A stretch of 64,000 nucleotides of DNA, from assembly GCF_028641065.1 (NCBI RefSeq), contig NC_073388.1, forward strand, positions 37,820,001 through 37,884,000, read 5' to 3'. Numbering within the stretch: the first letter of the stretch is position 1; each line of letters starts with the position of its first letter. This DNA comes from Leucoraja erinacea. Taxonomy: Eukaryota. The notes under the pieces are model-generated. The model was not told the origin of the DNA. It saw only the letters and a program-made list of their open reading frames with translations, and made no database searches. Below are positions 1,338 through 64,000 of this stretch, piece by piece. The translations under genes were made by a program, and so were the position numbers.

Positions 1338-1542
1338 AGGAACTACATGTATTGGAATATTGAGCAAAACACAAAGTGCTGGAGGAACTCCGAAGGTCAG
1401 GCAGCATCTGGGGAGAGAATGGACAGGTGGCGTTTTGGGTCGCGACCCTTATTCATTCCCTTACACAGATGCTGCCCGAGCTACAGAGTTACTCCAGCAC
1501 TTTGCGTTTTGTTTCAGATTTTAGCATCTGCAGTCTCTTGTG
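1338..1542. mobile_element. Palindromic Penelope-tail element
   Basis: caaaacacaaagtgctggaggaactc ... gagttactccagcactttgcgttttg; degenerate hammerhead segment ggcgttttgggtcgcgaccctt. Confidence 0.6.
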
Positions 1543-1795
1543 GCACCACTCACGTTAGAGAGTCTTGCATCAGTGAAGGTGGAGCTGCAGCTGTTGTTTA
1601 GATGGGACCCCTGCAAGACATGACGTGGTCCCCCACATAGACCCTGGTGCATCACCATCCCACTGCAGGCAACTCAGATAGTAGAGGTAGAAGCAAGAAG
1701 TAGAGATAGAAGCAAGGGAAAAGCCTTGTGGAAACAAGGAACTGCAGGTGCTGCTTTACAAAAAAAAGCAGTCCGCATCACTGGAGAACTGGGGT

Positions 1796-3348
1796 AGAAA
1801 CAAAGAAACATAGAAAATAGGTGCAGGAGTAGGCCATTCGGCCCTTCGAGCCTGCACCGCCATTCAATATGATCATCCCTCAGTATCCTGTACCTGCCTT
1901 CTCTCAATACCCCCTGATCCCTTTAGCCACAAGGGCCACATCTAAATCCCTCTTAAATATCGCCAATGAACTGGCCTCAACTACCTTCTGTGGCAGAGAA
2001 TTCCAGAGATTCACCACTGTGTGAAAAATGTTTTTCTCATCTCAGTCCTAAAAGATTTCCCCCTTTTCCGTAAACTGTGACCCCTTGTTCTGAACTTCCC
2101 CAACATCAGGAACAATCTTCCTGCATCTGGCCTGTCCAACCCCTTAAGAATTTTGTAAATTTCTATAAGATCCCCCCTTCAATCTTCTAAATTCTAGCGA
2201 GTACAAGCCGAGTCTATCCAGCCTTTCTTCATATGAAAGTCCTGACATCCCAGGAATCAGTCTGGTGAACCTTCTCTGTACTCCCTCTATGGCAAGAATG
2301 TCTTTCCTCAGATTAGGAGACCAAAACTGTACGCAATACTCCAAGGTGTGGTCTCACCAAGACCCTGTACAACTGCAGTAGAACCTCGCTGCTCCTATAC
2401 TCAAATCCCTTTGCTATGAATGCTAACATACCATTGGCTTTCTTCACTGCCTGCTGCACCTGCATGCCTACGTTCAATGACTGGTGTACCATGACACCCA
2501 GGTCTCGTTGCATCTCCCCTTTGCCTAATCGGCCACCATTCAGATATTAGTCTACTTTCCTGTTTTTGCCACCAAAGTGGATAACCTCACATTTATCCAC
2601 ATTATACTGCATCTGCCATGCCTTTGCCCACTCACCCACCCTATCCAAGTCACCTTGCAGCCTCCTAGCTTCCTCCTCACAGCTAACACTGCCCCCCAGC
2701 TTCGTGTCATCCACAAACTTGGAGATGTTGCATTCAATTCCCTCGTCCAAATCATTAATATATATTGTAAATAGCTGGGGTCCCAGCACTGAGCCTTGCG
2801 GTACCCCACTAGTCACTGCCTGCCTGCCATTCTGAAAAGGACCCGTTTACTCCTACTCTTTGCTTCCTGTCTGCCAGCCAGTTCTCTATCCACATCAATA
2901 CTGAACCCCCTATACCGTGTGCTTTAAGTTTGTATACTAATCTCTTATGTGGGACCTTGTCGAAAGCCTTCTGAGAGTCCAGATATAACACATCCACTGG
3001 TTCTCCCTTATCCACTCTACTAGTTACATCCTCGAAAAATTCTATAAGATTCGTCAGATGTGATTTACCTTTCATAAATCCATGCTGACTTTGTCCAATG
3101 ATTTCACCAATTTCCAAATGTGCTGCTATCCCATCTTTAAGAACTGACTCTAGCAGTTTCCCCACTACCGATGTTAGACTAACTGGTCTGTAATTCCCCG
3201 CTTTCTATCTCTCTCCCTTTTTAAAAAGTGGGGTTACATTAGCTACCCTCCAATCCTCAGGAACTGCTCCAGAATCTAAAGAGTTTTGAAAAATTATCAC
3301 TAATGCATCCACTATTTCTGGGGCTACTTCCTTAAGTACTCTGGGATG
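1796..3348 (-). mobile_element. CR1-clade LINE (HER1-like), 5'-truncated and frameshifted
   Basis: RT fragments [68 protein letters not shown]-type tail. Confidence 0.92.
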
Positions 3349-59920: not shown

Positions 59921-60774
59921 TACCCGTATGCTCGGGGCCACATAAATCTACCACACCACACGTATTTGGGATGAGGGAGAAAGCCAGAACACCCATTGGA
60001 AACCCACATAGTCACAGAGGAACCGTGCAAACTCCACCCAGACATCAGCAGGCCAGGATTAAACCGTGGTAGCTGGAGCTGTGAGGCAGCAGTTGTGCTA
60101 TTGTGCTGTCTTCCTAGAAAGGCCAATGAACAATGTGCTTCCTAATAACTATCTGTTCCTGCATGATAACTGTCAGAGATTTGTTTCAGTTCCTCTTTGC
60201 ACTAACAGTCTTCTGTGTGTGAGTATATAAAAAATAATCTGATTTTCTATTTTTATTTCACCAATTTTTTTTTCATCAAGGAATACAACTGTTGGTGCAT
60301 ATAAATATCTGAGAGCGAAATGCTTCCAAATGTTTACTAGTTTCAGTGTCATAGACTCATGGGATGAGGGAGTGCAAAAGGAATCTTCATGGTCAGTGAT
60401 GTCTGGACTTCCTACAATTGCAAGTCAGCTGGTCAAATGCTCCGTGGTGTTGTCAATGTCGTGGCAAATGCTGCAGCCAATTTTAGCAAGATACTCCCAC
60501 AAACAACAATAAGCGGCCACACAAAGTGCTGGAGCAACTCAGCGGGTCAGGCAGCACCTGTGGCGATTGCTTGAAGCTGCCAATAAATGGTTGTGGGGAC
60601 AGCCTGAATTCCAGATAGAACTGGAGTCATACTGCACGAAAACAGGCCCTTTGGCCCAACTCGGTCATGCCGACCAAGATGCCACTTCTATGCTAGTCAT
60701 ATTTGCCCACGGTTTGGCCCATATCCCTCCAAACCTTTCCTATCCATTTACTGTACCTGTCCAAGTGCCTTTTA

Positions 60775-61085
60775 AGGGCAGCACAGTGGTGCAGCGGTAT
60801 AGTTCTGCCTTACAGCGCCAGAGTCCCAGGTTCAATCCTGACCATAGGTGCTGTCTGTACATCGGTACTTTCTCCTTGTGACCGCGTGGGGTTTTTTATG
60901 AGTGCTCCCGTTTCCACTTACACTTCAAAGACATGAAAGTTTGTAGGTTAATTGGCTCTGGTAAAAATTGTAAATTGTCCATTGTGTGTGGGAAGCTGTT
61001 AACGTATGGGGTGATCGCTGATCGGCGTGGACGCAATGCAACAAAAAGGCCTGTTTCTGCTGTGTATCTCTAAAGTCTAAAGTAA
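60775..61085 (+). mobile_element. V-SINE nested in a CR1 3' fragment; further copies at ~59935-60110, 61800-62027, 63555-63870
   Basis: ggcagcacagtggtgcagcggta head; ctctaaagtctaaagt tail. Confidence 0.8.
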
Positions 61086-64000
61086 AACACTGTTATAGCA
61101 CCTGCCTCCACTACTTCCTCTGCAGCGCCTTCCATAGACCCACCACATGGATGAGCTGGGAGATGATCAGCTCTGGCAGCTGCTATCCAAGTGCTCTGAA
61201 TGTGTAATGAAGGCCCTGTGACCCAGCATATGGAGATTCAACTTCAACAGTACGTGTTGTGCAACAATGAAATCACAGTGGCTTAGGGAATCAAGAAATG
61301 CTGCCAGGATTAGATGGTATTTGTTACAGCGAGAGGTTGGACAAACCTGTATTGTTTTCTAAGGAGTGTCGGAGGCTGAGAGGAGATCTGACGGAAGTAT
61401 ATAAAACTATGAGAGGTATAGATAGAGACAGCCAGAAACCAAAGTTTCTTCTAGGGGAGGGGGAAACGGATGTGTGGGGCATGTTTTTTTAGCGCGGTGG
61501 TGGTAGATGCAGAATGATAGTGGCGTTTTAGAGCTGCTGGATTCCTATGGAAAATAGCATGTGACCCGGGTTTCAATCCTGACTATGAAGGGGTGCTGTA
61601 CCTATACGCAGATCCCCATTCATTCTCTTTTCTCACCCTCTTTGTGGCCCACCCACATTCCCCCTTCCGTCACCTTTGTATACCATCCAGCTTAGGTCTT
61701 CCAATCAAAACCCCTCACCTGGATCTACCTATCACTTGCCAGTCTTTGCCCCACCCCCTCCTCTTCCCACCCACAATTTGGGTAGCGCTTTGGTTTCCTG
61801 CCCCCCGGGTTCATCTGACTATGGGTGCTGTCTATATGGAGACGTGCATGTAGGTTTTTTGGGTACTTTGGTTTTAACTCCAAAGACGTGGATTTTGTAG
61901 ATTAATTGGTTTCTGGAAATTGTAAATTGTCCCTAGTGTGTAGGATGGTGCTTGTGTACGGGGTGATTGCTGGTTAGCGGGGTGATTGCCGAAGGACCTG
62001 TTTCTACTCTTTGGCTCTAAACTCTAAAGGGGGTGCCTGACCAGCTGAGTTTCTCCAGCACTTTGTGTTTTGCTCAAGATCCAGCACCTGAAATCCCTCC
62101 TGATGCCTGTGCTGTAGTGTTCTGTGTTTTATGTTCTAAGTAGAGTTTCTGCGAGGAAGGGTCATAGGTTGGGTCGTGGGAGGCACACTCCAGACCCCCT
62201 GCCTACGAGATGCAGAGTGAGTGTGTGGTGACAGTGTCAGTGTGAACACGGTACAGGTGCCTGGAACCTGTGACATCCAGGTTCAGGAGCAGCTCTTCCC
62301 TACAACCATCGGCTATTGAATGCTACAACTCCAAATAGGCACCGAGCCACATAGACGGGGACATTATCTATGACTTTCTACAAGTGTTTATTTATTGGTT
62401 GTATTTTTTAATATCTACTGACTTTTTCTTGTTGTTTATGATGGGTTTTACACAGTACTATGTTTACATATCTGTTGTGCTGCTGCAAGTAAGAATTTCA
62501 TAGTTCCGTATCGGGACATATGACAATAAAATTCTTGATTCGTGACTTTTACACTGGCAGGGTCCATGGCCACATGACACTGGGAATATGAGCTTTCCCC
62601 CAGCTAGGTGGGCAGCCTGCGCTAGGACTGGACCTTCGTGCTGGTGAGCAACGAGCTGACTGATCCTGGCAACTGGTGATGTCCCATCCTCTGGGTCAGA
62701 GCGTGGGGGCAGAGAGTGGAACAGGAGCCTCGCAGATTACGTGGCAGTATTTCAACAATGTCTGCTCTAGCAGGTTGCATTCTCAATGCTCCACTATTCC
62801 TGACCCTGCTCTTTGTGTCTCGCTAAAACACATTCCTCGTCATTTATTTGTGAAAAGAATATTAAAGGTCCATCTTAAACAGTCATAGAGTCATACAGTG
62901 TGGAACCAGGCTTTTCAGCCCAACTTGTTCACACCGACCAACATGTCCCATCTACACTAGTCCCACCTGTCTATGCTTGGCCCTTATGCCTCTAAACTTG
63001 CCCTATCCATATACCTGTCTAAATGTTTCTTAAACATTGCGATGGTACCTGCCTCAACTACCTCCTCTGGCACCTCGTTCCATACACCCACCACCTTTTG
63101 TGTGAAAAAGTTACCCCTCGAGTTTCTATTAAATCTTTCCCCCATCGCCTTAAACCCATGTCCTCTGTGTTTGAATCTGGATCCTAAACCTGGATTTGTC
63201 ATTTGTCTTTTTTCAGCAAAAATAAAGATTTGGAAAAAATGGGATCGAACTAGTGTATGGGTGATCGTTTGTCAATGCGGACTCACAGCTGGGCCGAAGA
63301 GCCTGTTTCCATGCTCTATCTTTAGCCTAAACTAAACTGGCTAATGGGCCAAGCTTATATGGGCATCTTGATTGGCATGAATGAGTTGGGCTGAAGGATT
63401 TGTTTTCAAGCTGCATTACTCTTTGACTTTGACTGAACAGAAATATACAAACAATAAAACCCTACGTTTATTTCACACCCTCATGATGCTTCAAGTAGCC
63501 CTGCTGCCACTTTGGGACAGTACAGTGATACATCCCTGAAGCTATGAGTTGGTGGCCTTGCCCGTGCAGCACTGCACCTGACAGCTTCAGGGTCTCAGGT
63601 TCGATACTGACTTCAAGTGCTATCTGTGTGGAGTTTGCACTTTCTCACTGTGACATATAGGTTTCCTCTTGGTGCTCCAGTTTCCTCCCACATCCCAAAG
63701 GCGTAAGGGTTTGTAGGATAATTCCCCCTATTATAAGTAGGTAGGGAATTAATGCGCGTGTATGGATGAATGGGTCACAAGGTAATAAGTGGGAGTGCAG
63801 TGGATTGGATTGGACTGAGAACCAGCATAGACTCAATGGGCTGAATGGCCTCCTTCTATGCATGTAATGAGGTAGTAATTTGAAGCACACAAGGGGTTTC
63901 CACAATGAACAGCGTGATGTGGCAGGTAGTTTGTTTCGATGACTTTGATGAGCGATGCTTCCTGTGGGGAGCTCTGAGACAGCTGAGCTCTCCAAGCCTC

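Follow-up and report, generated by a model that had tools for sequence, protein, structure and literature searches.

A 64-kb stretch of the Leucoraja erinacea genome (64,000 nt; positions 37,820,001 to 37,884,000 of NC_073388.1, assembly GCF_028641065.1; hereafter the window) contains many short, often palindromic repeats built around a minimal hammerhead ribozyme motif. We consider it likely that these repeats are the terminal module of a Neptune-clade Penelope-like element (PLE), and that each was written anew at insertion by the reverse transcriptase (RT)/GIY-YIG protein of that element and not copied from another short copy (stub). The repeats would then be ordinary PLE debris, not a new retrozyme system; an earlier account based on the letters of the window only (the sequence-only reading) had taken them for a retrozyme-like non-autonomous family.

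Positions within the module are numbered from the hammerhead C3 (position 0, the first base of CUGANGA), and the predicted cut falls between +27 and +28. A BLAST search with one module (6066-6160) gave 38 matches in the window, and a subsequent profile-and-alignment pipeline resolved 42 module copies in about 31 insertion units, in keeping with the 25-30 short elements estimated earlier. For the census, the window, 20 adjacent 10-kb stretches and 120 stretches at round coordinates were combined (141 stretches; 1,464,000 bases, 1.46 Mb). This sample holds 682 module copies in 547 units, and the module is present in 129 of 140 stretches. The density is ~370 insertions per Mb, most of them only the 100-135-nt module, which makes up about 4.6% of the sampled DNA (66,695/1,464,000 bases); extrapolated, the genome would hold about 800,000 units.

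The parent element

The longest trace of the parent in the window is a two-armed insertion at 5769-8194, which is 5'-truncated, lacks an intact open reading frame (ORF) and is flanked by a 16-bp target-site duplication (TSD; 5769-5784 and 8179-8194, two mismatches). Its left arm lies on the minus strand and has the tail, and its right arm lies on the plus strand without one. Frameshifted pieces of the C-terminal RT/thumb, a CX4CxxC linker and GIY-YIG (ORF residues ~433-837) were recognized in the left arm (6247-7573, minus strand), and a GIY-YIG piece (residues ~667-818) in the right arm (7323-7868, plus strand). The left arm contains a predicted minimal hammerhead with intact core and stem II (6121-6148, minus strand; C3 at 6148, predicted cut after 6121), whereas the terminal module of the right arm (8078-8176, plus strand; C3 at 8081) has a mutated U4 and the short 3' end. 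An RT/GIY-YIG element ending in the module had been placed at 5781-8178; the coding remnants and their link to the module stand, but not the wholeness of the element, which is truncated, two-armed and split by an unrelated miniature inverted-repeat transposable element (MITE) with GGGCCTGTCCCACT-like terminal inverted repeats (5842-6078, inside the module of the left arm).

Better preserved relatives were found by searching the genome with the RT piece of the window, where the best 150 of 20,963 candidates were scored. One locus, L041, has an 838-codon open frame with RT, DKG, a CNRKKCNTC linker at 705 and a GIY-YIG domain (YCIRCSRC..YIGET at 744). Pfam recognized RVT_1 (E 5e-6) and GIY-YIG (E 9e-4) in the ORF, both under the gathering score, and a PDB sequence search with it gave no match. 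Neptune-clade elements combine RT, DKG, a CX2-5CxxC linker and, at the C terminus, GIY-YIG in a single ORF (PMC8557442), and by this make-up the parent would belong to the Neptune clade, although such a linker also occurs in Nematis. The module lies on the same strand, 62-332 nt behind the end of the endonuclease, in 53 copies. The earlier proposal that the Penelope RT/endonuclease made the repeats is supported. The near full-length locus L233 starts at -2 with module and tail, continues into the long ORF (likely start codon ~35 nt past the tail) and ends with a second module, so that the stub sequence represents both the first and the last 130 nt of the element. Six subfamilies were distinguished, which have the ribozyme and the preceding CAGT in common and differ in the upstream sequence. 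Further PLE features seen in the family are the pseudo-long terminal repeat (pLTR), partial tandems, an inverted truncated copy, a 30-40-bp tail and the TSD. In L231, L232 and L233, a long, variable, proline-rich tandem repeat separates the conserved first ~150 codons of the ORF from the RT.

Since L233 starts where the stubs start, recombination of the 5' with the 3' module in full-length copies, as in the formation of solo LTRs, would leave a TSD-flanked module starting at -2. We regard this origin of the solo stubs as very improbable, because it yields neither two-armed units nor starts at +10 to +70. Moreover, only one sequence in the 1.46 Mb covers ORF residues 125-225, compared with 547 units, and none of the 39 tailed subfamily-6 copies continues into the ORF.

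Copy ends, palindromes and their origin

The 5' ends pile up at -7 to 0, just before the hammerhead C3. Of the 682 copies, 254 start at -11 to +3 and 20 at +26 to +30, confirming the earlier remark that copy ends cluster at the front edge of the ribozyme. Stop rates were scored in 10-nt bins for the 619 of 682 copies reaching +70, with the last bin set aside as the reference ends there. The rate was 0.667 (180/270) in bin -9 to 0, 0.278 at +1 to +10, 0.084 (39/467) in the cut-site bin and 0.04-0.2 in the other bins, a distribution at odds with random truncation (0.667 versus 0.04-0.28). TSDs verified 38 of 283 solos tested (control 5/563); 30 of these 38 have their start in the interval from -7 to +5, and 2 begin near the cut site. 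The match of 115 short solos to the reference at -1 to -6 was 0.72, 0.67, 0.57, 0.36, 0.39 and 0.27, whereas in 81 long copies it was about 0.85 at -1 to -4; the largest boundary step therefore comes after the A at -3. Cleavage-defined 5' ends were rejected, since the cut site has no peak of its own. The length of the unit is not set by cleavage of the ribozyme: the fixed end is near the ribozyme, as had been suggested, but ~30 nt before the cleavage site. The distribution of 3' ends has two modes, which lie 0-3 and about 35-41 nt before the long end, a difference that corresponds to the known PLE tail, and solos use the short and the long end in 167 and 152 cases, respectively.

Three ORF-bearing loci (L239, L247 and L263) were dropped as candidates for clean full-length 5' ends. 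In these loci the 5' edge of the module abuts a short MITE (4392-4529 in L239) with terminal repeats starting CAAAGATC and 8-bp TSDs, presumably hAT-like; two other targets of this MITE (GTCTCCAG and GTTTGAAG) resemble the first 8 bases of the module.

Neighbouring modules within 40 nt are head-to-head in 135 of 196 cases and tail-to-tail in 10 of 163, so the fold-backs reported earlier are indeed common. Their inversion points lie only partly at the ribozyme edge (at least one arm at -9 to +3 in 83 of the 135 pairs). After a check for decayed tails, 77 of the 135 pairs were classed as tailed plus tail-less, 13 as tail-less on both sides and 2 as tailed on both sides, with 43 unclassed (chi-square 45, p 2e-11). 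A TSD was found for 42 of 87 classed pairs (control 0/261), and 41 of these 42 are tailed plus tail-less. Among 286 wider pairs tested, 12 were TSD-linked, all of them tailed plus tail-less, though some perhaps by chance. Subfamily-6 arms are paired with subfamily 6 in 38 of 40 cases, and the two arms have variants in common about twice as often as controls (82/356 against 223/1821); 16 of the 135 pairs appeared to be chimeras of two subfamilies, but these look like ambiguous assignments and none was convincing. An adjacent inverted truncated copy, with the tail often at one end only, is typical of PLEs (PMC8557442, PMC3846280).

On the basis of this insertion geometry and by analogy with PAc, the Poseidon element of Anolis carolinensis, we propose the following steps. 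The endonuclease would cut both strands 9-16 nt apart, and reverse transcription would be primed by one 3'-OH at the tail site and by the second 3'-OH at the short site. When the front module of the RNA is copied, synthesis would halt at the RNA 5' end and give a 100- or 135-nt stub, whereas copying from the downstream module would give long, randomly truncated arms. The two cDNA ends may then join by microhomology, aided by self-complementary spots of the ribozyme (TCAG-N-CTGA and stem II), to form a palindrome; where one strand only is primed, joining of the cDNA to the target by microhomology would leave a solo stub. PAc cuts and extends both strands, starts reverse transcription at two internal sites bounding the tail and needs no ribozyme cleavage (PMC11167929).

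The junctions bear on whether the two arms were written independently. As an alternative, the tail-primed cDNA could fold and be copied back, the endonuclease cutting the second arm at the short site and later central deletions blurring the junction; self-priming with endonuclease-mediated resolution has been proposed before (PMC3846280, PMC8557442). The head-to-head geometry suits this route, and so do the symmetric junctions at self-complementary spots (the overlap is centred on TCAG-N-CTGA in 10 of 135 pairs and on stem II in 5) and the sharing of variants between arms. The 135 pairs show 120 kinds of junction, the recurrent ones at self-complementary spots. Against the fold-back route, in 30 of 75 pairs the 5' reach of the tail-less arm exceeds that of the tailed arm by at least 8 nt (the reverse in 19; tail-less arm further 5' in 12 of 41 TSD-verified pairs), so each arm holds sequence missing from the other. 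In addition, the centre base of the five stem-II junctions, oriented by the tail, is mixed (G in 3, C in 2), and among solos the short end is as frequent as the long one. We therefore rate the fold-back route as unlikely.

A clonal family of palindromes was also considered and rejected: the sole junction shared together with its flanks belongs to a stub that rides as passenger in a MITE whose terminal repeats are of the GGGCCTGTCCCACT type. This MITE, which we take to be Harbinger-like, carries a tail-less palindromic stub at four loci (L103:2140-2480, L131, L150 and L192), the sole case of a palindrome amplified as a unit; members of the MITE family are also present in the window at 5842-6078 and 45378-45598.

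Several observations weigh against independent writing of each copy by the PLE protein from two start sites. TSDs were detected in only the minority of tested solos given above. Among the 20 of 40 ORF-start copies inspected, only 3 have clean starts at -11 to 0; two more abut a MITE, 5 continue upstream as a partial tandem and 10 break off within the module. Exceptions to the one-tail pattern exist: L140 is a tailed plus tailed unit with a visible TSD, window 1327-1541 may be a second one, and in 13 pairs neither arm has a tail (3 or 4 of these pairs representing one MITE-borne copy). Deletions at the palindrome centre after insertion could mimic independent arms. The RNA reads treated below show no pile-up of starts or ends. 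Finally, the start sites of PAc do not differ between strands, and PAc is a Poseidon, not a Neptune element (PMC11167929).

Hammerhead motif and transcripts

The hammerhead consensus described earlier (CUGANGA, an extra A, 4-bp stem II, GAAA, palindromic ACGU and NUH) was recovered: a structural descriptor gave 29 matches in 1.46 Mb, 29/29 of them in the family, and 0 in shuffled DNA. All six consensuses have the marks of minimal PLE hammerheads, namely the core, the extra base after A9, G10.1-C11.1 and the palindromic helix III. Helix I, for which 4-5 bp would be expected in such a motif, has only 2 contiguous bp next to the core, and helix II has 4 bp. The motif is best described as a minimal PLE hammerhead with predicted self-cleavage. 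A scan of Rfam matched no hammerhead family and gave only weak microRNA-hairpin matches. This matters for annotation, as the module takes up so much of the sampled DNA and its hairpins can pass as microRNA precursors. The monomer folds no better than shuffled sequences, and stem II varies by loop changes and one one-sided change, with no compensatory pair. Dimer cleavage was reportedly treated by Lunse et al. 2017.

Core and stem II are intact in only 3 of 21 window copies covering the ribozyme and in 65 of 303 in the 1.46-Mb sample. At non-CpG core positions the mismatch to the consensus is 5.2%, compared with 10.2% in the 3' flank; this fits conservation among the source elements, although several flank positions are equally low. 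The catalytic G12, which lies in a CpG, mismatches in 27% of copies and the other CpG positions in 26-32%: the decay of G12 is that of an ordinary CpG, and the copies show neutral decay.

These data bear directly on the retrozyme interpretation, in which self-cleaving and possibly circular RNA units, their length set by the ribozyme, would be mobilized. In its favour, the hammerhead core is unchanged across the six subfamily consensuses despite their differing upstream sequences, and animal retrozymes are pLTR-derived and have been reported in one chondrichthyan (bioRxiv 10.64898/2026.07.22.740005). Nevertheless, 5' ends do not peak at the cut site, stubs begin 1-3 nt before C3 and retain only 2 bp of helix I, inverted copies are unable to form a same-strand dimer, and most copies lack an intact core. 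Tandem arrays of ribozyme units, by which animal retrozymes are defined in practice (head-to-tail repeats with at least two complete ribozymes; PMC7229834, bioRxiv 10.64898/2026.07.22.740005), were not found: of 90 TRF arrays with a period of at least 40, one overlaps the module, with only one unit carrying the ribozyme. Same-strand neighbours number 23; they occur as pairs, and the two members often belong to different subfamilies. The stubs fail the definition of a retrozyme because of the one-tail palindromes, the near-unique junctions (120/135 distinct), the lack of a tandem array, the decay of G12 and the fixed end off the cut site; moreover, every subfamily contains both stubs and upstream-bearing copies. 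For this sample the retrozyme interpretation is largely refuted, and we give it next to no weight.

The available RNA reads come from related raw runs of organisms that may or may not be Leucoraja erinacea, and from poly(A)-type, fragmented libraries prone to losing small circles. The module is covered equally on both strands in the bulk runs, and 77-97% of the reads continue into unlike sequence. Neither starts nor ends pile up in the reads, which in view of the libraries and organisms counts for little. In two bulk runs the commonest upstream loose ends among those listed are -3 and -2; these represent genomic stubs within host transcripts. Among the listed holders of the query sequence, none is recorded as RNA. 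A splice acceptor at the CAG before C3 was considered as well, but no such joint is among the RNA joints listed, where upstream coverage is thin.

A SINE-like non-autonomous family (SINE, short interspersed element), in which stubs, equipped with an internal promoter and with both start sites of the RT, are self-transcribed and re-copied in trans, would account for the very high number of units and their fixed ends. The module is abundant in the RNA of the related runs, pLTRs can act in trans (PMC3846280), and a re-copied stub would resemble a first-generation one. On the other hand, all six subfamilies hold stubs and upstream-bearing copies of like age, and young stubs resemble upstream-bearing copies (0.868) about as closely as they resemble other stubs (0.875). 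The equal strands and the run-on of reads into unlike sequence also argue against self-transcription, and, if PAc is a guide, RNA beyond the start sites would be required, which stubs are without (PMC11167929). We consider such a family improbable, slightly more so than the fold-back route.

Returning to stubs written by the PLE protein, the sharp 5' boundary may mark a putative transcription start: the front edge of the ribozyme is Inr-like (Inr, initiator; TCAGT), and the A at -3 fits an initiator. Core-promoter definitions place the Inr at the RNA start, the motif ten element (MTE) at +18 to 22 and the downstream promoter element (DPE) at +28 to 32 (PMC5580651). Taking A(-3) as +1, TCAGTY is present in 5 of the six consensuses, BBCABW in 2 and CGANC (+18 to 22) in 3. 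We tentatively envisage that the hammerhead front edge is an RNA polymerase II start, a 30-nt stretch serving as both core promoter (Inr TCA+1GT, MTE in stem II) and ribozyme; that the RT acts as an asymmetric dimer, one cut strand being obliged to use the tail site as its start and the other strand the short site; and that the palindromic helix III possibly tethers two modules instead of cleaving. This combined scheme is possible but rather doubtful. Should it be true, single full-length copies would spawn mainly front-module stubs, only tandem read-through would give long copies, and some 800,000 stubs in the genome would be explained. Against it, the DPE is never complete (3-4 of 5 letters in all six consensuses), the promoter match was noticed post hoc and Inr-like words are common, and clean ORF-start copies begin at -11, -6, 0 and -2 and not at a single site. 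Drosophila Penelope has an internal Inr/DPE promoter, but its ribozyme is located downstream of an intron (PMC2377424, PMC4209133).

Inventory of the window and comparison with known systems

The remaining units of the window were delineated by profile and alignment. Solo stubs lie at 5576-5667 (plus strand, start -2), 14655-14756 (plus, short end), 21281-21408 (minus, tailed, start -4), 24542-24645 (minus, tail-less, start -1/-2), 25346-25455 (minus, start -3), 33352-33496 (plus, tailed, start -1/-2, youngest subfamily) and 55968-56098 (minus, tailed, start -2). Two-armed stubs occupy 1366-1541 (an old subfamily; TSD not found, and the left arm may reach ~1327 with a decayed tail), 4096-4315 (tail-less arm on the minus, tailed arm on the plus strand), 14272-14444, 18394-18520 (decayed; seen also by BLAST and in the sequence), 34083-34305 (tailed plus tail-less, 9-bp TSD), 34748-34937 (tail-less arm to -5, tailed arm from +67), 56818-56927 and 58877-59113 (tail-less plus tailed, junction at the TCAG-N-CTGA self-complementary motif). 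At 41327-41716, a two-armed unit (41327-41582) is followed by a solo stub (41621-41716). Copies with upstream 3' untranslated region are present at 3344-3498 (minus; ~116 nt, 3' side cut short) and 47628-47818 (plus; ~100 nt). Two old tailed copies (15104-15193 and 15295-15484, minus strand) form 15104-15484, two decayed copies in opposite orientation lie at 48229-48421, and the rest are a ribozyme-only remnant (35379-35413, plus) and short remnants at 60519-60566 (minus) and 62034-62071 (plus). All four TSD pairs named in the sequence-only reading are present: 24542/24633 (13 bp), 33352/33488 (9 bp) and 34748/34924 (14 bp) were found by script, the first two in the TSD test, and 58877/59101 (13 bp, one mismatch) was read from the sequence. 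Additional TSDs were found at 34083/34297, 46052/46267 and 5769/8179.

At 46052-46390, a young two-armed stub (46066-46263, 14-bp TSD) sits within the tail of an older copy (46267-46390). L181 and L088 likewise have young copies inside older tails, with tail sequence as the TSD, giving head-to-tail pairs of different subfamilies; this agrees with the reported preference of PLEs for existing copies and would regenerate partial tandems. L125 and L173 have a common upstream flank and three-piece same-strand module fragments (period ~64), and are probably one duplicated or carried unit. Unrelated to the module, remnants of the RT of a long interspersed element (LINE), presumably CR1-like, were noted at 1799-3347, 10614-11990 and 12700-12969 (406 codons open at 10707-11927, minus strand). 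A run of 200 N at 12599-12798 falls within a LINE remnant, and a short-period tandem repeat at 50622-51117 keeps frames open on both strands.

In our literature search we met neither this family in sharks or rays, nor a one-tail rule backed by counts, nor a start site placed at the ribozyme edge, although Repbase, Dfam, Lunse et al. 2017 and preprint supplements may contain part of this. Animal non-LTR retrozymes (PMC7229834; bioRxiv 10.64898/2026.07.22.740005) are similarly short, non-coding and pLTR-derived, with a type I hammerhead and longer TSDs, but they form head-to-tail tandems with canonical ribozymes and unit-length and circular RNA, whereas here we see dispersed solos and head-to-head pairs with ends ignoring the cut site. 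PAc is alike in that two internal RT start sites delimit its tail (PMC11167929); it belongs to another clade, its ORF starts inside the ribozyme and not past the tail, and in vitro it gave no sign of start sites being paired in a strand-specific way.

The minimal hammerheads of metazoan PLEs share the extra base between A9 and G10.1, the G10.1-C11.1 pair and the palindromic 15.2-16.2, and differ from the present motif, which has a helix II of 4 bp and a proximal helix I of no more than 2 bp (PMC4209133). They are mostly solo motifs with some opposite-strand pairs, ascribed to truncated PLEs; the hosts named in the results and discussion of that paper are fishes, coelacanth, frog and reptiles, with neither sharks nor rays among them. 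Endonuclease-bearing (EN+) PLEs of the Neptune clade (PMC8557442) are alike in their single ORF of RT, DKG, CX2-5CxxC and C-terminal GIY-YIG; they too are heavily 5'-truncated, form partial tandems, have an inverted copy next to them and a 30-40-bp tail at one end, and carry a hammerhead in the pLTR. The one-tail and inverted-copy pattern is already in print qualitatively (PMC8557442, PMC3846280). In comparison, the L. erinacea family consists mostly of the module alone at high density, with a sharp 5' boundary at the ribozyme front edge, and the one-tail rule could be counted (41/42). It represents a very large natural record of PLE insertion products, whose near-strict one-tail rule and sharp 5' boundary provide testable constraints on the integration mechanism of PLEs and on the purpose of their hammerhead.

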